Source of the DNA: a virus
DNA: 64,000 bases
Direction: 5' to 3' (one strand)
IMG/VR virus record: IMGVR_UViG_3300025010_000004
Span: 1-64,000 of that record
The notes under the pieces are model-generated. The model had not been told where the DNA came from. It searched no databases and saw only the letters and a program-made list of their open reading frames with translations. How positions within the stretch are numbered: the stretch's first letter is position 1; each line of letters opens with the position of its first letter. Below, one piece after another: positions 7,791 to 61,979 of the stretch. The position numbers were made by a program, and so were the translations under genes.

Positions 7791-7806
7791 GTAGAACATG
7801 TTCTAC
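7791..7806. promoter_or_regulatory. 16-bp palindrome site 1
   Basis: GTAGAACATGTTCTAC between the putative promoter and the RBS of 7823. Confidence 0.75.
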
Positions 7807-7822
7807 CTATACTAAGGAGTGC

Positions 7823-9424
7823 TTGATGGCCTTAAATCTAAGAACCATATCTAACAGCGGAGCTGGTCTTAAAGATCCTGCAGGTAATCTGCTGTCTAAT
7901 ATAGAAGTTTCTTTTACCTTAGTTGATAGGTACGGAAAAGCCAAAGACTTTTTCGATAGTGTAACTGGTGAAAGAGTAGCATCTGTTACAAAATCTGTAA
8001 CTACTAACAGCTCGGCTGAGTTTTCTATAGCACTTTGGCCTACTTCTAGAGCGACAGAAACAGCCTTCTACAAGTGTAGTGTCAATCACACTGGGATTAA
8101 AGATTTTATATCTCCTTTAGTTGAAGGGGAATCTGTATTATCTTGGGCTACGTTTAAAGCTTCTGGCGCTTCTATAGAGGCCAATGAGACTTCTGGTTTT
8201 GCGCAGCATTTACAAGATATGTCTCTGCATTTAACTACTGCGCAGAACATAGCTTTGGATGCTGCTAATAATCCTTCTATAGCTAACCCTTACGCGACTT
8301 TGAATGATATAGTTCTGTCTGGAGGCGGTCACGTAGTACAGGACGAAGGTAATAATGCGCCTGCACAGGGGAAGCTTAATTTTGTAGGAGCAGGAGTAAC
8401 TGTTTCTGATGACCCTGATAACGGGGCTACTGTAGTCACTATCGTGACCGGCGAAACAAGCGCCGCTACTAATTTAGTAGCTGGGGCTGTTAAGCTGTCT
8501 GTAGCTGCGGTTGATGCTGAGAATCCTATAGCAGTTGGCACTAACGACTCTAGGCTTAGTGATTCACGAACTCCTCTTAGCCATACACAGCCTCTTTCAA
8601 CTATAAACGATGTAACTATATCTGCCGCTAATCTCAATAGTTTAGATGATGGAATTAACTCTACACTCCATTTTCACAATGCTGATAGAGATAGGGCTAA
8701 CCACACAGGAACTCAGGGGTGGGCTACTGTAACAAAGACAGGATCTTTCTTAACTGACATAGCAGATATACCAACTCCGGTAGCTAGTAAAGCTCTTAAA
8801 AGAAACGCCACTAACACAGGCTACGAGTGGGCAGATATTTCTGGGTTAACTGACCATGAGGGATTGACTGGTTTGCTAGGTGGTGCTGCAAACGACCACC
8901 ATCACATAACTAGTGCTCAACGAACAGATTTAACGGACGGCGGTGATAGCACTCTCCATTATCATGCTAGTGACCGACTTGTTGATAACCATGTATCAGG
9001 AACTACGAATAAGCTTTTTACTGCTACAGAGAAAACTAAATTAGCAGGCATATCTGATGCTGCAAATAATTATACTCATCCTTCAACACACTCTGCTGAT
9101 ATAGTAACTGATGGCACAACTAATAAAGCATTTACTGCAACTGAAAAAACAAAGCTAAGTGGTATCGCAGATAGCGCCAATAATTATGCTCACCCATCAA
9201 CTCATACAGCAAGTATTATCTCTGTAGCTACTACTGGGTTTGCTGGTAATTTAACTTCAGCAGAAGATACTGTGCAAAAGGCGCTAGATAAGATTGACGA
9301 TTTAGTTTTAGGAGCCACGCAAGTAGTATTGGAGCATGAAGACACGCAAATAACCACGCAATATACGTTAGTGGTTGGATTAGACGAAGAAGGAAATACT
9401 GTACTAAAAATAGTGGAGTTATAA
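7823..9424 (+). CDS. Tail fibre-like protein with His-rich internal repeats
   Basis: Duplicated GTTNKxFTATEKTKLxGIxDxANNYxHPSTH and L(D/T)DGxxSTLH(F/Y)H repeats, typical of phage fibre shafts. Confidence 0.6.
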   Translation: MMALNLRTISNSGAGLKDPAGNLLSNIEVSFTLVDRYGKAKDFFDSVTGERVASVTKSVTTNSSAEFSIALWPTSRATETAFYKCSVNHTGIKDFISPLVEGESVLSWATFKASGASIEANETSGFAQHLQDMSLHLTTAQNIALDAANNPSIANPYATLNDIVLSGGGHVVQDEGNNAPAQGKLNFVGAGVTVSDDPDNGATVVTIVTGETSAATNLVAGAVKLSVAAVDAENPIAVGTNDSRLSDSRTPLSHTQPLSTINDVTISAANLNSLDDGINSTLHFHNADRDRANHTGTQGWATVTKTGSFLTDIADIPTPVASKALKRNATNTGYEWADISGLTDHEGLTGLLGGAANDHHHITSAQRTDLTDGGDSTLHYHASDRLVDNHVSGTTNKLFTATEKTKLAGISDAANNYTHPSTHSADIVTDGTTNKAFTATEKTKLSGIADSANNYAHPSTHTASIISVATTGFAGNLTSAEDTVQKALDKIDDLVLGATQVVLEHEDTQITTQYTLVVGLDEEGNTVLKIVEL

Positions 9425-10276
9425 ATGAACTTTCGAATTAAAAATAAAGCTACTATACTTTTCACTGCGACTATTGGCGCTTTCTTTGTAGCCCAGATAT
9501 ATGCGGCTCCTGGGGATAAAACTGACGTTGGAAGTGTTTCTGCTGTGAGGCATAAGCGGTTATCTAGCGCTACGTTAGACTACAATAGGATGCCTAACCG
9601 AGTAGTTGTTCAGGATAGTCTAACCTCCGCTTCATCTACTGAGGCTCTCTCAGCAAAGCAAGGTAAGAATCTTAAAGCGATCCAGGACAACTACAGCACG
9701 GCGCAAGCCGCAAAGGATGAAGCACAAGACTCCAATATTAACGCGCGCCTTGCAACCTCAACGGCAGCAGCAACCTACAAAACCCTCGAAGGTTTCAACG
9801 ACTACTCCGCCGCACAACACGCCAAGCGCATCGCCCACAAAACCGCCGACGATCACCCCCAGTACCACAACGACACGCGGGGGGATGCGCGGTATCAGAA
9901 AAGCACATTAACCGGGCTTTCCGGCGATGCCACGTTACGCACCAACAACACCTACATTGCCAACGCCACCGGCAGATTGACGTTAGCCAATTACTCCACA
10001 GGCAGAATCGTTTTGTTCACGAATTACAGCGCCCGGCTCATCCCAGGTCAATCATCCATGCAGGTTAAGTGGACGCATCCTTCCACTTTCACAGGCTACA
10101 CAACATCGGCAGGATGGTCGGTAAAAATACCGGTCAATACCTACCTGGAACTGGTATCGCTAGGCTCCCCAATGTGGCAGGCGATCATGACAACGCAGCA
10201 CCTGGTTAAAACTGGAATAGATGAATTTAACGCACTGCCGAGTGCAACCATAGTTATTACCAACTTAGTACCATAG
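9425..10276 (+). CDS. Hypothetical protein with signal-peptide-like N-terminus; compositionally chimeric
   Basis: Basic-hydrophobic N-terminus ending IYA/AP; DDHPQYHNDTRGDARY fibre-like motif; base composition shifts near 9680. Confidence 0.55.
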   Translation: MNFRIKNKATILFTATIGAFFVAQIYAAPGDKTDVGSVSAVRHKRLSSATLDYNRMPNRVVVQDSLTSASSTEALSAKQGKNLKAIQDNYSTAQAAKDEAQDSNINARLATSTAAATYKTLEGFNDYSAAQHAKRIAHKTADDHPQYHNDTRGDARYQKSTLTGLSGDATLRTNNTYIANATGRLTLANYSTGRIVLFTNYSARLIPGQSSMQVKWTHPSTFTGYTTSAGWSVKIPVNTYLELVSLGSPMWQAIMTTQHLVKTGIDEFNALPSATIVITNLVP

Positions 10277-10285
10277 GAGGTCGGG

Positions 10286-13537: not shown

Positions 13538-13549
13538 ATGGAGGTGACT

Positions 13550-19635: not shown

Positions 19636-19651
19636 GTAGAACATGTTCTAC
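19636..19651. promoter_or_regulatory. 16-bp palindrome site 2
   Basis: GTAGAACATGTTCTAC; supplies the TAG stop of 19648..20190. Confidence 0.8.
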
Positions 19652-20190
19652 TTATTGTCAGTTAACCCATGTAGTGCCAAAAAGTGCGCATCCGCCAAAT
19701 CATAAATACTAGAGGGCTTTAAACTTCGATTAATAATGTAGTCCTCAAATCTTACTTTAACCTCGAATGGAAGTTCAGCAACTGTCGCCTTCTTAAGCCC
19801 GTCTTTAAGTTTCAGTCGTTTAATTTCCCTCCTTTCCTCTATCGGAATAACCTTGGCTCTCCAACTTGTCACTGGAACGGTGGTAACTTTAATACCTGGG
19901 TATAACACATATAATCTAGTTTTTATATACCATAAAAGGCCAGCTAGAATATCTTTACTAGAAGACACAGACCCAAAGCTTAAACCTTCTATGAATACAT
20001 CTGGAAGTACGTTCTCGTAATTTATGGCATCATCTACAACCTTCAATAGTCTATCCCATTGGTAGACTATTAGCTCTTCGTTATCAATCTCTTTCGGGGC
20101 ACATATTAGTTCGTATGATACCAATGAGCCGGTGTCAGTTACGGATACTACAGCGGTGCTCCTTTTAGATTGATCTATCCCTATTCGCAT
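19648..20190 (-). CDS. RuvC-like Holliday junction resolvase
   Basis: IGIDQS, VFIEGLSF, VTSWR, DLADA (RNase H-fold acidic residues). Confidence 0.75.
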   Translation of the reverse strand: MRIGIDQSKRSTAVVSVTDTGSLVSYELICAPKEIDNEELIVYQWDRLLKVVDDAINYENVLPDVFIEGLSFGSVSSSKDILAGLLWYIKTRLYVLYPGIKVTTVPVTSWRAKVIPIEERREIKRLKLKDGLKKATVAELPFEVKVRFEDYIINRSLKPSSIYDLADAHFLALHGLTDNK

Positions 20191-25432: not shown

Positions 25433-25448
25433 GTAGAACAAGTTCTAC
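25433..25448. promoter_or_regulatory. 16-bp palindrome site 3
   Basis: GTAGAACAAGTTCTAC, 1 nt after the SSB stop. Confidence 0.8.
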
Positions 25449-25449
25449 C

Positions 25450-26325
25450 TTACCATTCTACATCGTCAGCACCGCCGCCGTTGTCAACAACGATGGTAGT
25501 TTTTTCACCAGTTTGGGTGGACGAGCTATCAGGTTTAGCAGTAAGCTTCTTCTGCTGCTCATTTTTGAACTCCAGCAGTTGTTTGTTTACGCCGGTAACA
25601 AGCTGGAAGTTTTCTTTAAAAACTGCTGCAGGTACAGGCTCGCCTTTGTCAGACTTAAGACGATAGAACACGGTTGCTCCCTGCTCGTCTTCTTCCGTAC
25701 TGAACTTAGTAGTTACAGCAATAGTCGGAATGCCTTTAAGCCCTTCGTTGATGTAGTCCTGAAATGCTTTGTAGCTAGTGCCTTTGACATAGAACATTGC
25801 GATAGGGCAGTCAGTTCCATCAGGAAGTTTGGTTCCCGCCGGGAGGCGGAGGTAAACTACGTGCTGATTGATACAGCGATCTCCCTTTTCAAGCCCATCT
25901 TTCCTACGAGCACACGACTTGTCGTTACAAACAGACTTGTAGTTATAGCCGGTAGGTACTTCGCCGCGCTCGCAGATGATCTGGCTAGAACACCGCTTTT
26001 TGGGGTCTTCGGACCAGAAGGAATACTGAGTTCCGACTTTAAGGATAACACAGTTAAGTTTTTCGCCGAGGTCTGTTCCTGCGTGCTCAAGCACTTTTTT
26101 ACCATCGACGGTTTTGCTGGACTGGCCTAGAACGAAGTTGCCTTTAGGCACTTTGTTTCCGCTAAGGTCAGCACGTTCTTTGTAGTTGATTTTTACGATT
26201 GGAGTTTTAGTACCACCACCGTTGCCCTGTCCTGTAAGACGGGCGAGGTTTTCTTTTTCCTCGTCAGTAAGTAAGTCTAGAAGTTCTTGGTAAGCATCGG
26301 TTTCGGTGGGTTTGGTTTTAGCCAT
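25450..26325 (-). CDS. Single-stranded DNA-binding protein (T5 D11-like)
   Basis: Located upstream of SbcD/SbcC; acidic aromatic tail ADDVEW; own strong promoter. Confidence 0.65.
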   Translation of the reverse strand: MAKTKPTETDAYQELLDLLTDEEKENLARLTGQGNGGGTKTPIVKINYKERADLSGNKVPKGNFVLGQSSKTVDGKKVLEHAGTDLGEKLNCVILKVGTQYSFWSEDPKKRCSSQIICERGEVPTGYNYKSVCNDKSCARRKDGLEKGDRCINQHVVYLRLPAGTKLPDGTDCPIAMFYVKGTSYKAFQDYINEGLKGIPTIAVTTKFSTEEDEQGATVFYRLKSDKGEPVPAAVFKENFQLVTGVNKQLLEFKNEQQKKLTAKPDSSSTQTGEKTTIVVDNGGGADDVEW

Positions 26326-31828: not shown

Positions 31829-31848
31829 GTAGAACATGCATGTTCTAC
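31829..31848. promoter_or_regulatory. Palindrome site 4 (20-bp variant)
   Basis: GTAGAACATGCATGTTCTAC; central CATG duplicated; 1 nt after the primase stop. Confidence 0.7.
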
Positions 31849-34658: not shown

Positions 34659-34674
34659 GTAGAACTTGTTCTAC
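34659..34674. promoter_or_regulatory. 16-bp palindrome site 5
   Basis: GTAGAACTTGTTCTAC, 2 nt after the DnaB stop. Confidence 0.8.
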
Positions 34675-36641: not shown

Positions 36642-36657
36642 GTAGAACATGTTCTAC
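36642..36657. promoter_or_regulatory. 16-bp palindrome site 6
   Basis: GTAGAACATGTTCTAC; supplies the TAG of 36654..37094. Confidence 0.8.
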
Positions 36658-37492: not shown

Positions 37493-37698
37493 AGTTGTGC
37501 CTCCACTACTGCCCTAGCGCAGTTAATAGCGTCTTTGTGTCTGCCCAGTCTGCTAAGCTCGCCTTTGCGTATCTGCCGTATTAGCATACGCAGGGTATTC
37601 CTAGCATGGTGCTCATTCATGTCACCGACAGCGATAACCTCCATATCCTTAGTTACCCACAGTTCTTCGTCCTTGTAGTTGTTGTCTCTAATTGGCAT
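37486..37698 (-). CDS. Hypothetical protein
   Basis: AAGGAGG RBS; WVTKD...DMNEHHARNTL. Confidence 0.55.
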   Translation of the reverse strand: MPIRDNNYKDEELWVTKDMEVIAVGDMNEHHARNTLRMLIRQIRKGELSRLGRHKDAINCARAVVEAQLC

Positions 37699-39879: not shown

Positions 39880-39895
39880 GTAGAACATGTTCTAC
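39880..39895. promoter_or_regulatory. 16-bp palindrome site 7
   Basis: GTAGAACATGTTCTAC; supplies the TAG of 39892..40563. Confidence 0.8.
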
Positions 39896-40563
39896 CTTCT
39901 TTTGTACCCATCAACCTCGTAGAAGATGGCGTTGGTAACATCGCACATAGTAAACTTACCACCGAACACTCCGGCAGTGTCTAGATTAATCCTGTTTTCG
40001 CGTATTTCTGGGCCATACTCGTTAGCTGAGTGCCCGTGGATTACCTTCTTACCGAAGTCATGAAATGAGTATAAGAATTCTCCTCTTATCCATGTCATAT
40101 CTTCTTCAGTTTGCTCTTCTAAAGGAATGCCAGGACGGAGCCCAGCGTGAACAAATAGGTACTCTTCAGTCTCGTACCTATACGGTAGGTCGTTTAGAAA
40201 TTTGTAGTGCTCTTTAGGGAAGTCCTCTATAAACGGCCTTTTAAGCATGCCTGCATTGTAATCTCCTAGGTAGCTTTTAATTGTTGTGTTACCACCATTG
40301 AACAGAAATATGTGGTGGGACAGTCTTCCTTTCAAATATTCTAGTAATAGGTCTTCGTGGTTTCCCCTCAACACTATAGTTTTTGGGAACAACTCTTGTA
40401 TTTTTATCAGAATATCTATCATCTTTTTACTATCAGGCCCTCTGTCGATGAAGTCTCCTAGGACTATTAGCCTGTCTTCTTTGGTAAGCTTAGCCTTTTG
40501 GAGAAGTTGTATGAATTGGTTGTAACACCCGTGTATGTCCGATACTACTAGTAGTCTCTCCAT
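39892..40563 (-). CDS. Ser/Thr protein phosphatase (PPP family, lambda NinI/PphA-like)
   Basis: DIHG, GDFIDRG, RGNHE, HAG, HGH, LDT. Confidence 0.9.
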   Translation of the reverse strand: MERLLVVSDIHGCYNQFIQLLQKAKLTKEDRLIVLGDFIDRGPDSKKMIDILIKIQELFPKTIVLRGNHEDLLLEYLKGRLSHHIFLFNGGNTTIKSYLGDYNAGMLKRPFIEDFPKEHYKFLNDLPYRYETEEYLFVHAGLRPGIPLEEQTEEDMTWIRGEFLYSFHDFGKKVIHGHSANEYGPEIRENRINLDTAGVFGGKFTMCDVTNAIFYEVDGYKRR

Positions 40564-43327: not shown

Positions 43328-43343
43328 GTAGAATATGTTCTAC
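43328..43343. promoter_or_regulatory. 16-bp palindrome site 8
   Basis: GTAGAATATGTTCTAC (1 mismatch); supplies the TAG of the ThyX-like gene. Confidence 0.75.
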
Positions 43344-43831
43344 TTCTTAAATAAATTTCCGCAGCATTTAAGCTCTGGGCACACCCCGTTTCTGAACTCA
43401 CATTCCCTAACCATGTACTTGGGTAGGTAAGGGTCTACTAAAGCAACAGCTTCCTTAATAGCTTGCATCACTTCTTGTGTTTCTTTAGATGCTTGTCCGC
43501 ACAGCCTCTTTCGGGACATATTGATAAGTGCTTCGGCGTTAATTAACATTGAATGATTTATCTTAGTTAGTCGGTTAGCTAACTCACCGCCTCTATCTTC
43601 GCGGTTAGTGCCTACAAAATGCTCAACCCCAAATTTATGACGCACGAGATGAACGGAAATGAAGGTCATTATGTTCGTAATAGAACACCAGAACCACTGG
43701 GTCCGTATTGGGCTATGCATATTTCGATATATCTTATCTAGAGTCATTTTACTTTCTCTACCCCGCATGGTGGCAGAGCAAGCGGCTCTTAAAATTCGTT
43801 CGTCAGTCAACTTTGTAACTGTTACTTCCAT
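43340..43831 (-). CDS. thyX: ThyX-like flavin-dependent thymidylate synthase (short phage type)
   Basis: HSPIR, HLVRH, NAEALI...RLC..A..E, C...G.CPE..CCG. Confidence 0.7.
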   Translation of the reverse strand: MEVTVTKLTDERILRAACSATMRGRESKMTLDKIYRNMHSPIRTQWFWCSITNIMTFISVHLVRHKFGVEHFVGTNREDRGGELANRLTKINHSMLINAEALINMSRKRLCGQASKETQEVMQAIKEAVALVDPYLPKYMVRECEFRNGVCPELKCCGNLFKK

Positions 43832-48159: not shown

Positions 48160-48175
48160 GTAGAACTTGTTCTAC
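48160..48175. promoter_or_regulatory. 16-bp palindrome site 9
   Basis: GTAGAACTTGTTCTAC, 5 nt after the stop of 48181..49761. Confidence 0.8.
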
Positions 48176-48180: not shown

Positions 48181-49761
48181 TTACCCTACCTCTTCCGTGA
48201 AGTCCTCCCACCCAGCCGGAAGATCGGCGTAGCGAGGCTTGACCTTAGCGCCTACCTCTTTACCTTTGCGCTTGGCGTCGCATGCCGTACAAAGTTCTTC
48301 CCCATCAGCTCTGTACTTATTGTGGTACATTTCTCCACAATCTTGGCACTTGAACGCAACACCCCCAAGACAGTTATTGCAAACCCTGCCGACGTATTTG
48401 TGGTAAGTTACGTTATCCGTTAGATGGTACAGGCCACACACAGAACAATGCATAAACTTAGGTACGCATTCACCGCACACTTTACCGACACCGGCAAGCT
48501 CTTTTAGTTTACGTGTGTCTTCTTTAAGGCCACAATGTGAGCACAAAGTAAAGTGTTTTTTGTCGCATGCTGTACAAACGTTTCTGCCTTTAATAACAGT
48601 AACATTTCCTTTTTCGTGCCACTCACCACAATACGAGCAGTTACTGTACTTAGCATCAGTGCAGCGCTTGCATATAAGCTGGTTATGTACAGTGTTCATG
48701 GTGTCCATGTTATGGCGCTCTCCGCACACTTCACACGTTCCCCTAGCCTTACCGTAGTGGCCTCGGCAGGTTCCGCCTTGTTTGTATGTGGTTGTAATTC
48801 CACACTCAAGGCACATAGCTGGGGCAAACTGTAAAACTGGCATTTCGTACGCCACCTTAGCCGGGTAAGAAAGATCTATCCCATAGTTGTCAAAATAGAG
48901 TGCTGCGGTGTAGTGGTGATCTTCTGCCGTTGCGTACTTAATTTTACCAGGCGTAAAAGTAATACCGTGCTTAGTAAGGAATTCATTTTCAATCCCAAAT
49001 TTTGCCGATACCTTTTCTTCAAGGAATGCTCTGGCGGCATCACGCTCAAACCCGAAATATGCACCATAAGATTTTGGCTGCACGATGTACCCTTTGTCCG
49101 TAATAGCCATCCAGGTTCTTCCGAGCTTGTATATCTCGGCGTCTGTCATTTTAGCCGTCTCCTTAGCTATAAATGAGATCAGCGATATGCCGTCAGAGGC
49201 GTAGGCAATGTTTCCGTTGTAGTTTTCATGCCCAAAACTGTGGCACGAGCTAAAGGCGGCGTTGTCGGAAGCTGTAAGAAAATCTAGCAGATTGGTAGAA
49301 ACTACGAGCTTCCTGCCAGATTTTATAACGTCTCCTAGCCTCGGCAGAAACTGCTTGCGGTTACTGAGCTTAAGTTCAGGGGCGCAATATTCGATTATCT
49401 CGTCATTGTCCTCAAGCTGCTTGGCAAGAATTTTAGATATCTTACCCGGCTGGCCTTTCATAATAATCTCATTTTTAACCAGAGATATAGTAGAAAGGTC
49501 AATCTGATTACCCTTTTGCACAGCCTGATGCAGTAGATGCGCAACAACAGAGTAAGCAACAGGGTAATCCTTCCGCAGCATCTGTTCAGATTTGACCATA
49601 GGGATCTCAACGCGAAACATGTTGTCTTCGTTAAGCCCAACCATAGCGTCGATTTCAGCCTTAGCCTTGCGCATTGTGGCATACACTTTGTCAAGCGCGC
49701 CTGTAGGAATCCTGCGCTTTCGCAAAACCAATTCAATAGTTTTCAGCATTTCTTTGTTCAT
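48181..49761 (-). CDS. Phage protein with SC-motif domain and tandem CxxC Zn-finger repeats
   Basis: DFLTAS...FSSCH...YASD; about ten CxxC pairs in the C-terminal third. Confidence 0.65.
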   Translation of the reverse strand: MNKEMLKTIELVLRKRRIPTGALDKVYATMRKAKAEIDAMVGLNEDNMFRVEIPMVKSEQMLRKDYPVAYSVVAHLLHQAVQKGNQIDLSTISLVKNEIIMKGQPGKISKILAKQLEDNDEIIEYCAPELKLSNRKQFLPRLGDVIKSGRKLVVSTNLLDFLTASDNAAFSSCHSFGHENYNGNIAYASDGISLISFIAKETAKMTDAEIYKLGRTWMAITDKGYIVQPKSYGAYFGFERDAARAFLEEKVSAKFGIENEFLTKHGITFTPGKIKYATAEDHHYTAALYFDNYGIDLSYPAKVAYEMPVLQFAPAMCLECGITTTYKQGGTCRGHYGKARGTCEVCGERHNMDTMNTVHNQLICKRCTDAKYSNCSYCGEWHEKGNVTVIKGRNVCTACDKKHFTLCSHCGLKEDTRKLKELAGVGKVCGECVPKFMHCSVCGLYHLTDNVTYHKYVGRVCNNCLGGVAFKCQDCGEMYHNKYRADGEELCTACDAKRKGKEVGAKVKPRYADLPAGWEDFTEEVG

Positions 49762-50493: not shown

Positions 50494-50838
50494 TTACCCG
50501 ATAATTACCGTGCATACATCCGCTTTTTTCGGAGCCGGTGCAGGCACACATGCGAAGTACTTGTTATAGGCTTCGACAGCGGCTTTGAATTTGGCGTAGG
50601 TGGTTATGGGCATGGTGAGGGTGTAGTTGTTGCGGTAGGCGTTGTGGCCGCGAACAAAAACTTTATTGGCACCATCTACCTCAGGGTAAGCTGCGCTAGC
50701 AATGGTAAACCCACAGTGGGTAAACCTATCACTGCAGTCCCCGAAGTTGCTGTTAATATGAGTTTGCGAAAGGATCTGAACTTTTACAGTCTGGAAATCA
50801 GGAGCCACCGGGGTTACTTTACACGTAATTTTTTTCAT
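50494..50838 (-). CDS. EQTH-family paralogue 6 with C-terminal ADVCTVIIG tail
   Basis: ILSQTHI..NFG...FVRG...FKAAVEAYNKYF-PAPAPKK-ADVCTVIIG*. Confidence 0.8.
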   Translation of the reverse strand: MKKITCKVTPVAPDFQTVKVQILSQTHINSNFGDCSDRFTHCGFTIASAAYPEVDGANKVFVRGHNAYRNNYTLTMPITTYAKFKAAVEAYNKYFACVPAPAPKKADVCTVIIG

Positions 50839-51802: not shown

Positions 51803-51818
51803 GTAGAACAAGTTCTAC
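51803..51818. promoter_or_regulatory. 16-bp palindrome site 10
   Basis: GTAGAACAAGTTCTAC. Confidence 0.8.
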
Positions 51819-51832: not shown

Positions 51833-52402
51833 TTAATGTTTATTCCTGTTTCCTCCGAAGTAGACCTTTTGATAGGCACGCTCCGCGCGCCAAGGCTCTA
51901 CTTTTTCTTTAGCCGGTCTTTCCTTAACAGGAACACCAACCTTTTTGACTGCTGCGCTTATGGAACTCTTTTCTTTTTCTGGTTCTTTTACATCATGAAA
52001 CTCGTTGTACGCTTTTACCGCCTGCTTGAACCGATCATAGGTTTCTTTGCCAAGCTCGAACGATACTTTTCCTACATCGCTAGGACGAAACAAAAGAACT
52101 ACACAGGTTCGATAGTGCAGACCTGGCTCATATTCACTAATTCTACCAAGCTCCAGAGAATACAAGTTAAGAGCATCTTCACCCTCAACTTTGTGGTTGA
52201 ACACCTTAGACTTGTCGTTAAAATTTTCACCAAAATGAGTCTGTTCGGTTATAGTCACCTTAACGGTTTCAAATAACGGAGGTGTTATTTCCGCCTTATA
52301 TTTTATGTGTCTTCTAACTTTTTTAGTAACAAAAGCACCTGTAACCCATTCGTACCGTTCAGGGTAAGTCTCTCCCTCATGGTAGGTGTAGTATTTATAC
52401 AT
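51833..52402 (-). CDS. EQTH-family paralogue 9 (N- and C-extensions)
   Basis: RHIKYKA...ITEQTHFG.NF...FKQAVKAYNEF. Confidence 0.75.
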   Translation of the reverse strand: MYKYYTYHEGETYPERYEWVTGAFVTKKVRRHIKYKAEITPPLFETVKVTITEQTHFGENFNDKSKVFNHKVEGEDALNLYSLELGRISEYEPGLHYRTCVVLLFRPSDVGKVSFELGKETYDRFKQAVKAYNEFHDVKEPEKEKSSISAAVKKVGVPVKERPAKEKVEPWRAERAYQKVYFGGNRNKH

Positions 52403-53655: not shown

Positions 53656-55032
53656 CTACTCGATGGTTATAAGGTACGTTCCAGTATCCTTTGCATTATC
53701 TTTTTTGGTTGTCTTTGCCGGCGTGTTCTCGTAAGTTACAGCAGACACTTTTTCTTCGACTTTTCGCACAAGATCAACCTCGACCACACCTTTAGGCTTC
53801 ACTCCCCTTCTAGCCTTCGGTTTAACCTCAGCCACTACTGCCGCTTCTTCTACCTTCTTTTTAGCTGCTGGCTTCTTAGTCACAACAGGCGGAGGTAGAA
53901 CTTCTTCTACCTTTGGAGGCTCTACTACAGGTGCTTCAATTTTGTTTATATGTACAATCTTATTTCCAGGTATGTACCCCTTGTAGTTGTACGTGCTTCC
54001 TACACGGGTCCAATCTGCATGCTTACTGGCCAGCCCAAACACGAAGTCTCCAGCAGTTTCGTCGTAGCAAACAGAAAAGTCTTTACGTTGATTATCACAA
54101 TTAGGTAACGGGCACCAAGGAACTTTAACGTCACCAAGGGCTTCATGATAAACCGCAGGAACTCTGTAGTCGCAGAGAGTATCCATAGAGTATAATTCAG
54201 TCTTTCCCTGTTTCTTCATGGCTTCGATTACCTGGGTTCTATATGCAGCCGATACGCATTTAACATCCCCATAATACGGGTATTCATCTTTGGCCATATT
54301 TTTACGGTATATCATCCACCTTGCGACTGGCTTTCCATCTACCATGAGATAGCAACCTTTAGCGTAGGGCTGGTAGTGATACCACGCAGAAGGGTAAACC
54401 CCAGTATCATCAGCCACTTTAGGCCAAACCTTTCGGCTAATGTCTCCCCAATAGTCGTTTCCGACTCCCATGCAAGAGCCAGGAACTTTGGTCTTGTACA
54501 TTGTGTAGTAGTCTCTGACGGAGTTACATACCACTATCGCAGAAGGTAAGAAGCTGTCGGACACCATTTTGGCTAAATCTCTCACTTGTGCGTCTCCATA
54601 ACCAAGCTCCTTTAAATTTGTGTAGTCAGCCACAAGTTTGGCGAATGTGGTAATCTCCCACTTTAACGCTAGCTTAACTGCTCGCTCTGGAGTTGCAAAC
54701 CTAACCTCCGTCTTTGGGTCTTTCAGAATTTTGGTTATATATTCAAGCACGTCTTCTGCTTTGAAGTTAGCTTTAATGTTAGGGTATACCCTAACCTTGT
54801 CGGGATCGGATTTTACAGGGAGGGCAAGGGGCATTTCCGGCTTTACTTTGTAGCCGTAGCCTGCTCCTTCAATAACACCTTTTATCTTCTTGGTGACATT
54901 TGCCTTTATCTTCGGCAATGTTATTGCAAGCCGGAGGAACTTTTCAGCAGGCTTACCCACAACTTCTTTTGACTTCTCTGCTGTCTCAGGTTTGAGTTTG
55001 CCGAGTGCGTCCTTGTAAAATTTAAGTGCCAC
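53656..55032 (-). CDS. Phage protein with SCM-motif domain and K/P/A/V-rich tail
   Basis: GSCMG...AWY...DGKPVARWMIY; AGGAGG RBS. Confidence 0.6.
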   Translation of the reverse strand: MALKFYKDALGKLKPETAEKSKEVVGKPAEKFLRLAITLPKIKANVTKKIKGVIEGAGYGYKVKPEMPLALPVKSDPDKVRVYPNIKANFKAEDVLEYITKILKDPKTEVRFATPERAVKLALKWEITTFAKLVADYTNLKELGYGDAQVRDLAKMVSDSFLPSAIVVCNSVRDYYTMYKTKVPGSCMGVGNDYWGDISRKVWPKVADDTGVYPSAWYHYQPYAKGCYLMVDGKPVARWMIYRKNMAKDEYPYYGDVKCVSAAYRTQVIEAMKKQGKTELYSMDTLCDYRVPAVYHEALGDVKVPWCPLPNCDNQRKDFSVCYDETAGDFVFGLASKHADWTRVGSTYNYKGYIPGNKIVHINKIEAPVVEPPKVEEVLPPPVVTKKPAAKKKVEEAAVVAEVKPKARRGVKPKGVVEVDLVRKVEEKVSAVTYENTPAKTTKKDNAKDTGTYLITIE

Positions 55033-55314: not shown

Positions 55315-55484
55315 TTGACAAAATCAACTTTTTGTGGTATAATGCATTCATCGAGCCGTTAGGCGAAGATGAATGCTATAGGGTTTTAAGGTTATGCCTT
55401 GCTGTATGCCTTGCTGTATGCTTTGCTTATGACCTTAACCCTGTGTCTACCCCGCCCGAAGGGCGGGAGGCGTTTTAATGAGAA
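55315..55484 (+). ncRNA. Promoter-driven structured non-coding element, copy 2
   Basis: TTGACA-N17-TATAAT at 55315-55343; three hairpins; loop with TATGCCTTGCTG repeats; 47 nt identical to 36359-36405. Confidence 0.65.
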
Positions 55485-55485
55485 T

Positions 55486-55501
55486 GTAGAACATGTTCTA
55501 C
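55486..55501. promoter_or_regulatory. 16-bp palindrome site 11
   Basis: GTAGAACATGTTCTAC; supplies the TAG of the NAMPT-like gene. Confidence 0.8.
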
Positions 55502-57033
55502 CGGCCAAGTAACCTTGCACGTATATCTGATAGGTTACCGTCAACCAACAGCACCCCGTCCTTAAATATTGGACGCAGTAGGTCAGTGCCAGCTGCCGCT
55601 ATCATGTTTTGGTTGGCTATTGACAATCCATCAATAGCCTCAATACCTTCAGCAGTCTGGACTACAACAACCCTACCGGTCAATGACTTTTTGATCTTGT
55701 CTGTATCAGTGGCAGGATCTTTGAAGATATTAACTTCCTTTCCTTTAATTACGCAGTGCGTTGACTTCATAGCGAAACCAAAGGTATCCCTAGTATTGTA
55801 TTGGTAGGTGTACGAACCTATACCAAATACAATATTTGTGGAAGCGAATCCTTTGCGCTTTAGGCGCTCGCAGATGTCTTTAGCCCTCTCAATGGTTATA
55901 GAGTCGCCGTAGATAGCGCCTATGTGGGGGTCAAGCTGCTTGTATCCTTTGCTGTTGATAGTGCCTCCGAAGGTATCCCACAGGATTTCTATGAGTCCTT
56001 TATAGGCGCTTTCACTACACTCCGGGTCAAACCTCTCAACATATACCTCGTAAGTGGAATAGTCAATCGTAGTGTTTAGCCCACAAATAATATCAGCAGG
56101 ATCTCCAGAATCAGGACGGATTACAACTTTACCATCCCTAGCCATGATAATATCTTTGAGCTTAGGAAGAATATTGCTGGTAACATGCCACAAATCCCAA
56201 GTATCAGATACGAGAGATACAATTCCCGTAGGATATACGTCTTGGATTAATCTACGAAATGTTTCATACTCATCTACTTTTCCTCCAGCGCAGACTACGC
56301 TGTGCTCAGTCGCCGGAACGCTACAGCCCACCAATTCTTTTTCGATATTGGCGTTGTATTTATCCTCAAGATAAAGTATAGCCGGAATAGTGTCTGTTCC
56401 TACAAACGATAGCAAGTGCCCTGCCCCACTTACACAAGCTGCTTCTACGGCCCCCATACCCCGCATTGAGAAATCGTGCCCCTGGAACTGCACGAAGTCT
56501 GGCATATCAGAAGTTTCCTCAGCGTATCTAGAAAGAATTTTGTGATATTCATACGCGATAGTGGCACTTGTGGAACCCTGCCACATCTCACACGAGGCCA
56601 AGGTTTCAATGTAGTTGGTAAGCCAGCCGAATCGTGGGTCGGTATTCTCAACAGTAAGCATAGGAACCCTTAGTGGAACAAGCGTTCCCTCCGGGACCGC
56701 TTTTATCAACAAAGGAAGATGCCCAAGTTCATGTAGCGCTCTTATATGTGTAGTATCAGGTTCCGCCACGCCTAACGTGAATTTAATCACCCTGCCGTAC
56801 TCTCCAGCAACTTCATCAACAGGACGGCTGAAGAAGTTTTCGTTAAAGAAGTCGATAAGCCAGTCTTTAACGAACCCCTGGAAGGAAAACGCCACCACTT
56901 TGTCAACGAACTTAATCCTTGACGTGCGAGGAATCCATGTGCTGTACACAATCTCAGTTCCGTCAGGATACTGGTCCTTGTGTCCGATTTTGTAGAAATC
57001 ACACAGTAACGTTGCAATTAGTCCTTTACGCAT
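55498..57033 (-). CDS. Nicotinamide phosphoribosyltransferase family (NadV-like; Namat of NARP1 by context)
   Basis: DFYKIGH..QYP, HDFSMRG, SVPATEHSV, SDTWD, VIRPDSG, IYGDSIT, FGIGS, RDTFGFAMK. Confidence 0.9.
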   Translation of the reverse strand: MRKGLIATLLCDFYKIGHKDQYPDGTEIVYSTWIPRTSRIKFVDKVVAFSFQGFVKDWLIDFFNENFFSRPVDEVAGEYGRVIKFTLGVAEPDTTHIRALHELGHLPLLIKAVPEGTLVPLRVPMLTVENTDPRFGWLTNYIETLASCEMWQGSTSATIAYEYHKILSRYAEETSDMPDFVQFQGHDFSMRGMGAVEAACVSGAGHLLSFVGTDTIPAILYLEDKYNANIEKELVGCSVPATEHSVVCAGGKVDEYETFRRLIQDVYPTGIVSLVSDTWDLWHVTSNILPKLKDIIMARDGKVVIRPDSGDPADIICGLNTTIDYSTYEVYVERFDPECSESAYKGLIEILWDTFGGTINSKGYKQLDPHIGAIYGDSITIERAKDICERLKRKGFASTNIVFGIGSYTYQYNTRDTFGFAMKSTHCVIKGKEVNIFKDPATDTDKIKKSLTGRVVVVQTAEGIEAIDGLSIANQNMIAAAGTDLLRPIFKDGVLLVDGNLSDIRARLLGR

Positions 57034-57844
57034 CTCTTTTTACCTCCGTATAAAGTTGGTGTATGATAAGATTTTCTAGAGCAGTTGAATTACACATTAT
57101 GCTGTTTGTAGTATATACTTCGTCTATTAACTTTGATGTAAATATTTTCCCTGAGAATATAGTGTGCTCACAATGAGCAACCATAAGGTAAATATTCGCA
57201 GCGCCATGGGATTTAAGCGCCTCGGCTGCCGCAATAAAAGTTCCGCCTTTGGAGCATAGATCGTCTACTATCAGAACTTTTTTACCTTTTACACCTGTGC
57301 CTGACACAGAGTATTTTATGATATCACCAGTCTTGAAATCCCTTTCCTTGCTACCTACAGCGGAAGGATACCTTGCAACGTGACTATATCTCTTCTCAGC
57401 TCCTGCATCTGGGTAGAAAAGTATGGTGTTGTCCATTCCGTGCTTATCAACAAAGAGGGCCATGAGGGCTGGTATAATACTAATGTTTGTACACCGGTTT
57501 AGAAGAGCAGTAGAAACGTCGGAATGTGCGTCAACTACTTTAACTCTCGCAAAGTGCATTGCGTTAATCATATCGCATATGTACTTTAAGTTGAAAGTGT
57601 ATGTGTTGTTGGCTCTGTCCATTCTGCTGTACGGCATGTACAGAATCTTCAACGTCATTATGTTGTTCGGAATAACGTCATTCATGTAACTGCGAAGTAT
57701 GTACAAGTCCATAAGGTCTTGATCGGTTTCGAACTTTAGTACAACAACTGAGCTGTTGTGAAAAGTTATCTTATTGTAGTTCAGGTATCTTTCGTTGTTA
57801 GGAAAAACACCGAACTCAACTTTTACATTGTCAATTAAAATCAC
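57026..57844 (-). CDS. Ribose-phosphate pyrophosphokinase family (Adps of NARP1 by context)
   Basis: FPNNE, YMPYSRMDR, DAHS, PDAGAEKRY, IVDDLCSKGGTF. Confidence 0.88.
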   Translation of the reverse strand: MILIDNVKVEFGVFPNNERYLNYNKITFHNSSVVVLKFETDQDLMDLYILRSYMNDVIPNNIMTLKILYMPYSRMDRANNTYTFNLKYICDMINAMHFARVKVVDAHSDVSTALLNRCTNISIIPALMALFVDKHGMDNTILFYPDAGAEKRYSHVARYPSAVGSKERDFKTGDIIKYSVSGTGVKGKKVLIVDDLCSKGGTFIAAAEALKSHGAANIYLMVAHCEHTIFSGKIFTSKLIDEVYTTNSIMCNSTALENLIIHQLYTEVKRDA

Positions 57845-57867
57845 TGGATGTTACCTCCTTTATTTAG

Positions 57868-57883
57868 GTAGAACATGTTCTAC
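57868..57883. promoter_or_regulatory. 16-bp palindrome site 12
   Basis: GTAGAACATGTTCTAC; supplies the TAG of 57880..58173. Confidence 0.8.
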
Positions 57884-58173
57884 TTATGCATTTCTTCGTA
57901 GTATCCTATGATTGGAGTGGTTATCGCAACGAACACTAGCCCAAAGATAGCTGAGCAGAACCCTAGAGACACGACTTCCTTTACGGTAGATATATCCATT
58001 ACGAAGTAGGCCACTAGCAGGCCTATCCAGAAACACTGGCAGAACGCGCAGTTATTTAGGAACCTTGTAGGAGTGGTTTTACTCATTAGTTTAGTCAGCC
58101 AACGCATGTGCTTGTGCTGAAACAGGAAGAACTGAACCCCTAATACGGTTAGTAGGAAAATACAGAATAACAT
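57880..58173 (-). CDS. Small membrane protein with CxxC..FW motif
   Basis: Three hydrophobic segments; CAFCQCFW. Confidence 0.6.
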   Translation of the reverse strand: MLFCIFLLTVLGVQFFLFQHKHMRWLTKLMSKTTPTRFLNNCAFCQCFWIGLLVAYFVMDISTVKEVVSLGFCSAIFGLVFVAITTPIIGYYEEMHK

Positions 58174-58182
58174 TTTGCCTCC

Positions 58183-59271
58183 TTATTCTTTCGCTTTTAT
58201 ATTTAGCACAGGTTTTATGAAATCAACTACATCAATAGTAATACCCTCCTGCGCCTTCATGACGTAGTTAATGTCTTTGTATGCCTCTGGAGCCTCATCT
58301 AGTATGCTCCTATCTGTGGAACAAACAACGCCTTCCATCTGGCCTACGAATTTATCGTAGTCAAGATTCTTCTTGGCGGCGTTTCTGCCCATAGTTCGTC
58401 CACACCCGTGAGACGCCGATGAAAGAAACTTTTCATTACCAAGTCCTTTGGTGATGTACACACCATCCCTCATATTAGCAGGAATTATGCCAAGTTGATG
58501 TGCGTCGGCTGGCGTAGCACCTTTTCGGTGCAGCACTCCTTCTTTTGTAATAATTGCGTGGTTATGGTTTTCGTTAATTAGAAGATTGCTCTTGTATGTG
58601 ACACCGAGAATCTTACATATTTTGTTTATCATTTTTAACCTGTTATATAACGCCCACTCTAACGCAAAATTCATATCCCCTAAGTAGGACAACCCAAGGT
58701 CTGATAATAAAGGAAACATTCTTCCTTGTTTCATGTACCACCCGCCTATTGTATGCCCAACGTTACGACTTCCTGAATGAATAGTCACACAATACGTGCC
58801 AGTATTTTGGCTTATCCCTATCTCTATGAAGTGATTGCCCCCTCCTAGAGTACCTAGCTGCATAACAGATTTTTCTTTTACTCTCTGTTTCACTTCTTTA
58901 GGCATGTGAGAGTGGATAACATATTCAAAATGATAGTCTGACTTATCAAGAGATGAAAATCCAGTAGGGATGGTTTTAACTATATCATCGTATAACTGTT
59001 TAAGGTTATCCTTTGATAGCTCATACTGAGGTATGTTTGTGTCAACCGAGCACATACCACATCCCACGTCGAAGCCTACGAAGCTAGGAGAGATCATGCC
59101 GTCAAGCAAGGCCACTCCGCCGATTGGAAGATCATAACCAGCGTGAACGTCAGGCATAATAGCCAATTTTTTAAGACATTCCAATGAAAGAACGTCATAA
59201 ATCTGCTGCTGCGCTGACTGCTCTATTTCTTCCATCGGCACCATAGACTGTAGTTTGTCAAGCTTGCTCAT
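58183..59271 (-). CDS. rtcB: RtcB-family RNA ligase
   Basis: MPDVHAG..LPIG, DVGCGM, GTLGGGNHFIE, HSGSR, HRKGA, SASHGCGR, DEAPEAYK. Confidence 0.93.
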   Translation of the reverse strand: MSKLDKLQSMVPMEEIEQSAQQQIYDVLSLECLKKLAIMPDVHAGYDLPIGGVALLDGMISPSFVGFDVGCGMCSVDTNIPQYELSKDNLKQLYDDIVKTIPTGFSSLDKSDYHFEYVIHSHMPKEVKQRVKEKSVMQLGTLGGGNHFIEIGISQNTGTYCVTIHSGSRNVGHTIGGWYMKQGRMFPLLSDLGLSYLGDMNFALEWALYNRLKMINKICKILGVTYKSNLLINENHNHAIITKEGVLHRKGATPADAHQLGIIPANMRDGVYITKGLGNEKFLSSASHGCGRTMGRNAAKKNLDYDKFVGQMEGVVCSTDRSILDEAPEAYKDINYVMKAQEGITIDVVDFIKPVLNIKAKE

Positions 59272-59281
59272 ATAATCTCCT

Positions 59282-59632
59282 TTACTCCTTGAAATATTCG
59301 TTGTATGCTTCTACTGCGGCTTTGATTCTGGGCCAGTCTTCCGAATAAATATCGAAAGTATGATAGTTTTGTATTGCAGACCCTCGCAGGTAGCATGTTA
59401 AAGTTGTTCGCCTAGCATGACTTACTACTTTTTGGGTGTGCGGAATATTCCCAGCGTGTGATACTAGGCGCACTCCGTTATGACAGAAGTCTACCGCTTG
59501 TTGTATTTGTACTACCTTTGGCAACTTTAAATCCCCAAAATCAGTATGAAAATGAGTTTGCTCAAGTATAGTTACAGCAGCCGCAGTCCTATCCTCAGAC
59601 AAAACACATTTAAGTTTTATATGTTTAGGCAT
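59282..59632 (-). CDS. EQTH-family paralogue 11
   Basis: KHIKL...ILEQTHF..DFG...YLRG...WPRIKAAVEAYNEYFKE. Confidence 0.78.
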   Translation of the reverse strand: MPKHIKLKCVLSEDRTAAAVTILEQTHFHTDFGDLKLPKVVQIQQAVDFCHNGVRLVSHAGNIPHTQKVVSHARRTTLTCYLRGSAIQNYHTFDIYSEDWPRIKAAVEAYNEYFKE

Positions 59633-59634
59633 AG

Positions 59635-59964
59635 TTACTCCTTGAAATATTCGTTGTAGGCTTTAACGGCCTCCTTAATTAAAGGCCACATGTCGGCAGG
59701 TACGTCGAACGCTACGTTTTTTCTACTACTGGATATTAACCTAACATCAACTTGCCCGTCAGTCTTGTTTCGTCCGTCAAAGTTAGGATAATTATGCGTA
59801 GCAGAGAACAGGTCAATAACTCCGTGTCTGAATACTCTGCTATGCATTCTACCGGAAATATTTCCTCCAAACTCATCATCAAAATGTGTCTGTTCAAGTA
59901 TAGTCACGGATGCGGTTTGTTTGTTTTTAGATAGTATGGCGGATAATTTAAGGTGTTTATGCAT
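59635..59964 (-). CDS. EQTH-family paralogue 12
   Basis: KHLKL...ILEQTHF..EFG...WPLIKEAVKAYNEYFKE. Confidence 0.78.
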   Translation of the reverse strand: MHKHLKLSAILSKNKQTASVTILEQTHFDDEFGGNISGRMHSRVFRHGVIDLFSATHNYPNFDGRNKTDGQVDVRLISSSRKNVAFDVPADMWPLIKEAVKAYNEYFKE

Positions 59965-59966
59965 AT

Positions 59967-60146
59967 TCACCCCTTCAACACATCTTTGTCATCAACCCAC
60001 ACGTAGCCGGTAGCCAACTTGACTAAAGTTTTTCTGGCTACCCGCTCATAGACCGCGCCTTTAACCCCAAGCGTAGGAATGAACACCTCTTCGCGTTGCT
60101 TGATTATATTGGCAGATTTCCTATATCTTTTGGTTTCGGATTTCAT
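59967..60146 (-). CDS. 59-aa hypothetical protein, not in the ORF track
   Basis: GGAGG RBS; ATGA coupling; MKSETKRYRK...VLKG. Confidence 0.45.
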   Translation of the reverse strand: MKSETKRYRKSANIIKQREEVFIPTLGVKGAVYERVARKTLVKLATGYVWVDDKDVLKG

Positions 60147-60286
60147 TTATCGTACCTCCCGAATCCCTTGCCTTTACGGGCCTGTTTCCGGTCTATCTTA
60201 AAGCCCTTGTCTTTTTCAACCTTCACGCCCTTTGTAGGAATCTTGCCGGACTTGATCTTCTCGAAGTTATTAGCGGATTGAGCCAT
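60143..60286 (-). CDS. 47-aa basic protein, not in the ORF track
   Basis: AAGGAG RBS; MAQSANNFEKIKSGK...GRYDK. Confidence 0.45.
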   Translation of the reverse strand: MAQSANNFEKIKSGKIPTKGVKVEKDKGFKIDRKQARKGKGFGRYDK

Positions 60287-60298
60287 TCGTAGTCTCCT

Positions 60299-60487
60299 TT
60301 ACTTGGTAGCTTTCAGTAAGGTGTTGGTGTGGAGTCTTCTGCAGTAGCCGTAAGTCTCTCTGCGGCTGTATGAAACCCAAGCTAAACAAAACTTGGTCGC
60401 ACAAAGGTTTCTATTTCCGTCTTCGTTTGATATTCCTACTCCGAAAGGACAGCGTAGTTTTACAGCTTCTTCTTCCAGAATTCGCAT
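60299..60487 (-). CDS. Small Cys-containing protein
   Basis: EEEA...CPF...C...CLAW...GYC. Confidence 0.55.
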   Translation of the reverse strand: MRILEEEAVKLRCPFGVGISNEDGNRNLCATKFCLAWVSYSRRETYGYCRRLHTNTLLKATK

Positions 60488-60586
60488 TATTAATGTCTCC
60501 TTTGAATGCGGTTGATATTACTTTGGCGTAGTATAAAGCATTTTTAAATGAGTCACCTAGCAGCCAATATTTTATAGTCAGTAGTA

Positions 60587-61933
60587 TCACTTTAACGCCG
60601 CCTTCATTCTTGCGACGGCCTCTTTCTTTCCAAGGACGTGCATTACATTTACTACAGGAGGCGAAGCTGTTTTACCTGTGAGAGCCATGCGTATTTGCGG
60701 TCCGAGTTCTTTTAGCGTTACGTTATGTTTTTTACAGCCGTGGCTAATGGCCTCTTCTATATCTTCTATAGAATAGGTCTTTTTCTTCTCAAGTATTTCC
60801 ACTATGGAACCTACTGAATGATCGGCCCTTACCGCTTTAGGCTTTTTGTAATACACCTCAGCCATTTCTGCAATCTCAATTAAAGTCTTTGCCCTCGGCT
60901 GCAACAACTTCACAACCTCAATAATATCAGGGCCTTTGTCAGTTTTGTAGTGCATGAACGGCTTGGCTTGTTCCGCTATTCTCTTGGGATCGCCGTTCTT
61001 AATCCAATGCGCGTTAATGTGCAGCATTTTGTTCGGATCAAGACACCCTGGCGCTCTACCTACCGAATTAAGCGAGAACTTTTGTATCAGGTCGTCCATT
61101 GAGAATATTTCTTCATTCTTGTAGCTCCAGCCTACACGGGCAAGCCCATTGACAACAGCCTCCGGAAGAAAACCTTTATCCCTGTAGTCAAGGACAGAAG
61201 CATCACCGTTTCTCTTACTGAGTTTTTCGCCTTTATCATTAAGGATGAACGGGGTGTGGGCATATTCAGGAACCGGAAAGCCAAGCGCCTGATACAGCAT
61301 AGTCTGGGCTGGCACGTTGCCTACTCCGTCAACGCCTCGGACAATATGTGTAACACCCTGTAGGGCATCATCAACCATATTTGCAAGGAGGTATCCTACG
61401 CTTCCGTCCTGCCGTTGGATTACGAAGTCGCTGATCTCGCTGTTCTTCACGCTGATCTTTCCGAGAACATGATCTTTCCATTCTACGCGGCCCTGGTCTT
61501 GGGTCTTAAACCGTATGACGAATGGCTTTCCTTCTTGCTCTGGCTTTTCATAGCAGGTTCTATCGTAGAGGGGCTTTTGCTTGTTCCTCAGCATTTCATC
61601 CCTTTTTGCTGTGAGTTCTTCTGCCGTGCAGTAACACTTGTAGGCTTTTTTCTCTTTCAGGAGTTTATCTACGTATTCCTTGTAGATGTGACCTCGTTCG
61701 CTTTGGTAGATTATTTCTACGTCACTTTTGATGCCAAGCCAGTTGAGCCCTTCTAAAATGTTGTCTGCGAACTCTTGGGTAGATCTTGAAAAATCGGTAT
61801 TCTCAATACGCACGATAAAAGTTCCTTTATGTTGCCTAGCAAAAATATAATTATGCAAACTCTGGCGGGCCATCCCACAGTGCCCTGGGCCGGTGTTAGA
61901 TGGTGCTACGCGGCATACAATAGGTTTAGTCAT
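60587..61933 (-). CDS. gltX: Glutamyl-tRNA synthetase (class Ib) with divergent HIGH region
   Basis: RVAPSNTG..HCG, RIENTD..RS, YQSER, CYC...YDRTC, THIVRG, KLSKR, anticodon domain IRMALTG..SPP. Confidence 0.9.
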   Translation of the reverse strand: MTKPIVCRVAPSNTGPGHCGMARQSLHNYIFARQHKGTFIVRIENTDFSRSTQEFADNILEGLNWLGIKSDVEIIYQSERGHIYKEYVDKLLKEKKAYKCYCTAEELTAKRDEMLRNKQKPLYDRTCYEKPEQEGKPFVIRFKTQDQGRVEWKDHVLGKISVKNSEISDFVIQRQDGSVGYLLANMVDDALQGVTHIVRGVDGVGNVPAQTMLYQALGFPVPEYAHTPFILNDKGEKLSKRNGDASVLDYRDKGFLPEAVVNGLARVGWSYKNEEIFSMDDLIQKFSLNSVGRAPGCLDPNKMLHINAHWIKNGDPKRIAEQAKPFMHYKTDKGPDIIEVVKLLQPRAKTLIEIAEMAEVYYKKPKAVRADHSVGSIVEILEKKKTYSIEDIEEAISHGCKKHNVTLKELGPQIRMALTGKTASPPVVNVMHVLGKKEAVARMKAALK

Positions 61934-61963
61934 AATTAAATTCTCCTTTGTGTTAGTTTGTAA

Positions 61964-61979
61964 GTAGAACATTTTCTAC
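61964..61979. promoter_or_regulatory. 16-bp palindrome site 13
   Basis: GTAGAACATTTTCTAC (1 mismatch) between the divergent gltX and endonuclease genes. Confidence 0.7.

Follow-up and report, generated by a model that had tools for sequence, protein, structure and literature searches.

A 16-bp palindrome, GTAGAAC-NN-GTTCTAC, stands at one gene junction after another in the first 64,000 nucleotides of IMG/VR virus record IMGVR_UViG_3300025010_000004 (positions 1 to 64,000, here called the window), and the question that this locus raises is whether the repeated element is read by a protein as duplex DNA or as a hairpin in the transcript. We analyzed the palindromes in the whole phage genome and in three related lineages, each of which carries a palindrome of its own. 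The array is real, strongly non-random, and phage specific. We give about an even chance to the reading that the sites are duplex-DNA docking sites for a phage-encoded dimeric protein and form an operator-like network.

The window covers the opening 64 kb of a 113,294-bp genome (G000), which has direct terminal repeats and belongs to an uncultivated T5-like phage. The late arm, on the plus strand, starts at about 92.5 kb, passes through the record end, and stops at 14.5 kb; the minus-strand early/replication arm spans 92.2 to 14.6 kb. When up to two mismatches were allowed, 13 matches to the palindrome were found in the window, compared with 0.09 expected from shuffled sequences (maximum, 1), and one further copy is a 20-bp variant. 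Genome-wide, 30 copies have perfect GTAGAA/TTCTAC arms. The arms are constant in all 30, the four central bases alone vary, and among the intergenic copies of G000 none departs from the arms by even a single base. The half-sites are separated by N2 in 29 copies and by N6 in the remaining one. The initial annotation had described the sites as running across both the late and the replication modules; in the complete genome, 28 of the 30 copies lie in the early/replication arm (19.6 to 80.8 kb), and only those at 7791 and 101606 belong to the late arm. Every copy that it listed, including the 20-bp variant and the in-gene copy, was recovered at its position.

About 25 of the 30 copies are at gene junctions. 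In the window, six copies contain the TAG that ends the upstream gene, five begin 1 to 14 nt past a stop, and most end 13 to 47 nt ahead of the next start with an AGGAGG-type Shine-Dalgarno (SD) sequence in between; independent gene calls matched the placement counts of the initial annotation. SD sequences of this phage are strong in general (AGGAGG). The palindromes of G000 have no adjoining promoter and no U-tract after them, and the consensus scan found no sigma-70-like promoter upstream of the copies at 7791 and 61964, both of which had been thought to follow promoters. Copy-to-copy spacing grows in the direction of early transcription, from about 0.2 to 1.4 kb (near 81 to 70 kb) through 2 to 5 kb in the middle to about 6 kb at the distal end, and the copies are densest at the promoter-proximal end of the early arm. 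No other phage with the same motif was found in the phage collection, and a search of IMG/VR with the exact 16-mer returned only single chance matches in other viral contigs.

The DNA polymerase of this phage is only about 27% identical to those of the nearest cultured phages. Through polymerase homologues, we reached three lineages that are syntenic with G000 and whose DNA polymerases are about 61% identical. G001 (113,142 bp, with direct terminal repeats) has 35 copies of ACTTCCGA-N3/4-TCGGAAGT, with AC flanking both half-sites; G003 (105,687 bp) has 25 copies of TWGGTAATTACCWA; and the G002 clade (82.5 kb, GC content of 51%) has about 26 copies with a perfect 5-bp core (ATTCA/TGAAT) of AATTCA-N4-TGAATT, in sequence form AATTCAGATGTGAATT. 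The three palindromes are unrelated in sequence to that of G000, yet they occur at the same kind of place. No repeated palindrome was found across 50 kb of the early region of T5. Because G001 and G003 come from one metagenome and carry unrelated palindromes, the reader of the sites must be phage encoded. Conservation of site position between lineages is weak (pooled odds ratio of 3.3 and P = 0.03 on the 5' side; not significant on the 3' side). The copies lie mostly at non-orthologous junctions, thereby indicating that the array turns over and is not bound to particular genes.

The same comparison bears on the idea that the motif is a borrowed host regulator box, such as a LexA/Cheo-like GAAC...GTTC, a case that the initial annotation had raised against its own proposal. 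The core GAAC-AT-GTTC resembles the half-sites of Gram-positive SOS boxes. The spacing, however, is N2 (N6 in the variant) and not the N4 of a Cheo box, phages of the same sample series carry unrelated palindromes, and the exact 16-mer is found elsewhere only by chance. A host box is effectively refuted.

The motif of the G002 clade is tied to promoters. Nine of about 17 promoter-pattern matches carry it in a fixed register: in four cases it begins exactly 3 nt downstream of the -35 box and extends into the -10 box, in another four or five it stops exactly 7 nt ahead of a -35 box, and one copy lies just after the -10 box. This arrangement is kept in strains that are 80 to 90% identical, and one of the motif-bearing promoters drives a tyrosine integrase. 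The phasing suggests that the motif of the G002 lineage is almost certainly an operator. G002 combines a T5-like replication module with the integrase (L043 3933-5171) and with a MarR_2 gene (34878-35234; L041 14878-15234) and a ribbon-helix-helix (RHH) gene (37461-37619; L041 17461-17619), both flanked by copies. Integrase is absent from G000, G001, and G003, and G002 appears to be the temperate member of an otherwise lytic-looking clade.

The sequence around the half-sites was then compared with what a duplex-DNA site and an RNA stem would each require. In G000, position -1 is a purine in 30 of 30 copies and position +1 a pyrimidine in 27 of 30. Both half-sites have A at -2 and a purine at -1, which gives a full half-site of A-R-GTAGAAC and an 18-bp duplex form of GGTAGAACATGTTCTACC. 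These flanks are symmetric without pairing covariation: eight copies have A.C clashes at -1/+1 on the mRNA strand, and Watson-Crick flank pairs are about as frequent as under independence (17 versus 13.9 expected in G000 and 13 versus 15.3 in G001). The purine-rich and pyrimidine-rich flanks and their A.C clashes, as first reported, were thus reproduced. Predicted RNA hairpins of about -6.6 kcal/mol (G000) and -8.8 kcal/mol (G001) are stable, and those of the other two lineages are weak, with means of -2.6 kcal/mol in G002 and -2.1 kcal/mol in G003; in most G003 copies, the second stem "pair" is a T.T or A.A clash. Folded in context, 23 of 30 sites formed the hairpin in G000 and 29 of 35 in G001, compared with 5 of 25 in G003. 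The clade conserves dyad symmetry, not foldability. Because the flanks are symmetric without covariation, two lineages fold poorly, and the G002 motif is phased with promoters, we favor the duplex-DNA reading. The proposal of a double-stranded half-site, RRGTAGAAC, for a dimeric phage protein therefore stands as the best-supported one, alongside a possible role of the RNA hairpin.

Several observations weigh against a dimer on duplex DNA. Nine of the 35 G001 copies, canonical junction copies included, have a centre of 3 nt instead of 4 nt, and such variation weighs against a rigid dimer. In the 20-bp variant of G000, the half-sites are 4 bp further apart while the whole is still a perfect palindrome, which suits a hairpin better. 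Asymmetric centres are biased in orientation relative to transcription in all four genomes (YACA, 12 versus 2 in G001; GAWG, 14 versus 5 in G002; 13 versus 5 in G003; CATA, 4 versus 0 in G000), with a combined P of about 0.003 for centre classes that were picked after the data had been viewed. The consensus promoters of G000, G001, and G003 never carry the motif; in G000, none has it within -40 to +30. The MarR and RHH proteins of G002 have no homologue in G000, so that the promoter evidence from G002 transfers by analogy only. Finally, no recognizable repressor was found among the approximately 110 G000 proteins scanned with Pfam and PHROGs.

The strongest competitor is an intercistronic RNA hairpin that is read by sequence by a phage RNA-binding protein or nuclease and that might serve to process the long early transcripts, shield mRNA ends, regulate the neighboring SD sequence, or bring about antitermination of the nut/boxB type. 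We give it about half the weight of the duplex-DNA reading. It agrees with the stereotyped place between stop and SD, often 3 to 9 nt from the SD, with the stable stems of G000 and G001, most of whose sites fold in context, and with the variable centres of G001, the longer perfect hairpin of the variant, and the orientation bias. A gap of 4 nt separates the end of one G001 copy from a tRNA-Glu gene, a PIN-PhoH protein is among the phage gene products, and the few consensus promoters for an arm of roughly 65 kb make long transcripts plausible. Against it stand the G002 and G003 versions, which barely fold, the stem mismatch of most G003 copies, and the symmetric flanks with their A.C clashes. 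In addition, no genome contains compensatory stem variants, a G002 copy within the spacer of a promoter cannot function as RNA made from that promoter, and no Rfam family match was obtained in the part searched, genome 64 to 104 kb, which lies outside the window. An elaboration, which we regard as improbable, is that a lineage-specific nuclease or antiterminator would read the hairpins as transcribed punctuation, cutting or reprogramming very long early transcripts at some 30 junctions, and that otherwise syntenic phages would exchange hairpin and protein together; Cas6 on CRISPR repeats and N on boxB would be the parallels.

Somewhat less probable still is the idea that the copies are recombination joints for the swap, insertion, and loss of genes, similar to the promoter-early stem-loop (PeSL) cassettes of T4-type phages or the attC sites of integrons, with any effect on expression being secondary. 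Copies do bracket lineage-specific blocks, such as NAMPT and phosphoribosyl pyrophosphate (PRPP) synthetase (57868/55486) and the LemA/TPM genes (66273/64116), their positions turn over between lineages, and some indels of the G002 clade begin at a copy (e.g., a 1.4-kb insertion after L022:6949). However, copies are not enriched at core/accessory boundaries (odds ratios of 0.8 to 1.4; P of 0.48 or more), and in the G002 clade the roughly 2 to 5 of 11 to 16 indel gaps that touch a copy approximate the share of junctions bearing one. Neither a promoter nor a U-tract accompanies the G000 copies, unlike PeSLs, and the three lineages without integrase include G000 itself. Selfish or structural hairpins in single-stranded DNA, either moved as repetitive extragenic palindromic (REP)-like elements by a RAYT/IS200-type enzyme or formed in replication, are very improbable. 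The all-or-none identity of the copies suggests copy-paste and not point mutation as their origin, the flanks give better G.T pairing on the template strand, and the GTAG...CTAC stem base is reminiscent of E. coli REPs. The template-strand pairing, though, is explained by base composition and by stop-codon constraints on the left flank, the stems of G002 and G003 are very short, and Y1 transposase/RAYT (PF01797) gave no match at E ≤ 1 in any of the four genomes, with positive controls.

Under the duplex-DNA reading, each copy would bind a symmetric dimer of a sequence-specific phage protein. About 28 such sites would punctuate the early/replication arm, avoiding coding sequence by using the gaps from stop to SD, and the bound protein would act on passing RNA polymerase, by road-block or silencing (e.g., to switch off early genes at a set time), or on the arm's DNA itself. 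Because the consensus promoters of G000 lack a site, action on passing polymerase or on DNA, and not on initiation, would be expected. That binding blocks elongation is a tentative proposal, to which we give less than an even chance; a road-block or shut-off would fit because the sites are restricted to the early arm, cluster at its promoter-proximal end, and have orientation-independent arms, and because of the analogy with G002.

The minus arm encodes a T5-like gene set (family A DNA polymerase, DnaB-like helicase, primase, ligase, FEN, SbcCD, and NrdDG) along with tRNAs and many small genes of no assigned function. The consensus promoters of G000, G001, and G003 are nearly alike, with an UP element, TTGACA, 17 nt, and TGnTATAAT. 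In G000, three such promoters lie on the minus strand in the window (26467, 36166, and 44380), and seven were counted in the entire arm. So few promoters imply either very long early transcripts or a promoter class that went unrecognized.

Arrays of this kind have been described in other phages. The conserved inverted repeat (CIR) of phiC31 is a roughly 17-bp palindromic operator with highly conserved intergenic copies in the early region. The phiC31 repressor reportedly binds the CIRs, in work from 1994 by Ingham et al. Unlike G000, phiC31 is a temperate phage of Streptomyces whose repressor has been identified. Closest in form to the G000 array are the 17-bp dyad repeats of Cluster O mycobacteriophages. 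These phages have 34 invariant 7+3+7 repeats, TGTTCGG-N3-CCGAACA in Corndog, for which dimer binding was predicted by the authors (PMC4351075). The two arrays share invariant inverted arms with a short variable centre, about 30 to 34 copies, many of them intergenic, a greater density in one arm, no link to promoters, a phage that is not obviously temperate, and a predicted dimeric binder. They differ in that Cluster O is an unrelated phage group on an unrelated host and has no sequence similarity to G000. About one-third of the Corndog copies are in genes, whereas the G000 copies are more strictly at junctions; no orientation bias of the centres was seen in Corndog, in contrast to some bias in the G000 clade (PMC4351075). 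The G000 clade, in addition, has syntenic relatives with wholly different palindromes, one of which is in promoters.

The initial annotation had likened the sites to the stoperators of Cluster A mycobacteriophages (L5 gp71 and Bxb1 gp69), which are 13 bp long, asymmetric, and mostly in one orientation relative to transcription (PMC6550527). The label fits loosely, as both systems place dozens of copies of a short word in the small intergenic gaps of long operons, and the coevolution of motif and reader between related phages is common to stoperators (PMC6550527) and this clade. It fails in that the G000 site is a perfect 16- to 18-bp palindrome with a weak orientation bias in two to four central bases only. 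The stoperator motif is also the operator at the early lytic promoter, whereas the G000 consensus promoters lack the site, and stoperators are found in temperate phages whose repressor is known and blocks elongating RNA polymerase when bound, whereas G000 has no integrase or recognizable repressor. G002, with its word also in promoters and its integrase, is nearer to the stoperator case. The PeSL cassettes of T4-type phages are likewise repeated stem-loop elements at the boundaries of small early genes (PMC2839356). Each combines a strong promoter with a working terminator, and the cassettes mediate shuffling (PMC2839356), whereas no enrichment of palindrome copies was seen at core/accessory boundaries or, between G002-clade strains, at indel gaps. 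Measured against intercistronic processing hairpins such as T7 RNase III sites and Cas6-type repeats, the stems are stable in two lineages, marginal in the other two, and show no covariation. The likeness to parS/ParB fails in G000, in which PF02195 was not found.

The initial annotation had proposed a search for ParB, repressor, and integrase genes beyond the window, and none was found anywhere in G000. Most minus-arm proteins match no family. HTH_3, RHH, and MarR gave no match above the cut-off in G000, and a diverged repressor may be present. Three helix-turn-helix (HTH) candidates were identified: a GerE-type protein (92585-92968), a probable terminase small subunit, and a GIY-YIG/HTH endonuclease. 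The GerE-type protein is kept in all four genomes (best PDB match, GerE; E = 0.002), and it was rejected as the reader of the palindromes on the basis that its recognition helix differs too little between lineages to account for unrelated motifs. The fast-evolving protein of gene 80057-80770, which adjoins the densest site cluster and has no family, is 92% identical to P0078; a scan of viral contigs for the source of such 92%-identical proteins gave no match. A language-model (Atlas) hint that it is a phiC31-repressor-family protein (score of 0.79 for repressor) or DUF3102 failed hidden Markov model checks. Copies of the local motif lie on both sides of gene 74196-74648 (150 amino acids) in each of the three lineages without integrase, and the predicted structure of its product (predicted local distance difference test score of 80) gave no significant fold match. 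The PIN-PhoH RNase/helicase-type protein is the candidate for a role on RNA. By position alone, these four, i.e., 80057-80770, 74196-74648, the GerE-type protein, and PIN-PhoH, are candidate readers. The individual copies in the window are listed in Table 1.

Table 1. Copies of the palindrome in the window, with their placement relative to neighboring genes
Element	Position	Placement	Further feature
Palindrome, centre CATG	7791..7806	Plus-strand late arm; 16 nt before start of gene 7823-9424	No upstream promoter in consensus scan
Palindrome	19636..19651	TAG is stop of RuvC-like gene 19648-20190	G001's own palindrome at same junction
Palindrome	25433..25448	1 nt past stop of gene 25450-26325, then terminator-like hairpin	G003's own palindrome at same junction
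20-bp variant, GTAGAAC-ATGCAT-GTTCTAC	31829..31848	1 nt past primase stop	13 nt before next start
Palindrome	34659..34674	2 nt past stop of DnaB-like helicase gene	18 nt before next start
Palindrome	36642..36657	TAG is stop of gene 36654-37094	SD starts 3 nt later
Palindrome	39880..39895	TAG is stop of gene 39892-40563	
Palindrome, centre CATA on mRNA strand	43328..43343	TAG is stop of gene 43340-43831	
Palindrome	48160..48175	5 nt past stop of gene 48181-49761	
Palindrome	51803..51818	14 nt past stop of gene 51833-52402	
In-gene palindrome, one central mismatch	53895..53910	Inside open reading frame 53656-55032	
Palindrome	55486..55501	TAG is stop of NAMPT gene 55498-57033	Then GC-rich hairpin
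Palindrome	57868..57883	TAG is stop of gene 57880-58173	
Palindrome, one central mismatch	61964..61979	30 nt before glutamyl-tRNA synthetase gene	Gap faces opposite-strand GIY-YIG/HTH gene

Other features of the phage were recorded along with the array. A 430-amino-acid gene of the window (62033-63325, plus strand) encodes a LEM-3-like GIY-YIG nuclease domain followed by about five tandem HTH modules, and its homologues (30 to 32% identity) are at other genome positions in the relatives, as for a free-standing homing endonuclease. A family of 14 paralogues of 70 to 221 amino acids is spread over positions 40575-64075 of the window (e.g., 50494-50838, 59282-59632, and 63410-64075). All members have a ..EQTH.. 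motif in an N-terminal strand and W..IK.AV.AYNEYF in a C-terminal helix, and they match no family; homologues were detected in G001 and G003, and none in G002. Positions 55498-61933 of the window hold an unusual RNA/NAD gene set of glutamyl-tRNA synthetase, RtcB ligase, NAMPT with PRPP synthetase, and YqeY, and outside the window are a CCA-adding enzyme (68004-69380), a PolX-like protein (73518-74183), and the PIN-PhoH fusion (85204-86595).

Nearly identical plus-strand consensus promoters run against the early arm at 36249-36405 and 55315-55484 in the window and at genome position 92340. They are followed by hairpin-rich stretches of roughly 150 nt without open reading frames, and the two window copies share a GC-rich terminator end. 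Related 5' hairpins come after the equivalent promoters in G001 and G003, and these stretches are a candidate small RNA family. At genome 78120-78300 (L016 14120-14300), about 12 copies of a tandem 12-bp iteron, GTTACCTTGCAT, were observed, and at about 79690 (L016 about 15690) there are four copies of CAGGCACCTTA. This mostly non-coding stretch lies within the densest palindrome cluster and may serve as an origin or resemble an injection-stop region.

Perfectly conserved, dispersed junction palindromes recur in unrelated phages, as in Cluster O and phiC31, and the lytic cases are without demonstrated function. The G000 array belongs to this known, still unexplained type of phage palindrome array. 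The clade provides a comparison set of four syntenic genomes with four unrelated motifs, in which one temperate-looking member uses its motif as a promoter operator and three members without integrase use theirs only between genes. It opens the question of how a genome-wide pair of site and reader is replaced wholesale, and whether lytic phages time their early genes by repressor-type road-blocks. Pairs of motif and reader from this clade would serve as orthogonal regulatory parts.

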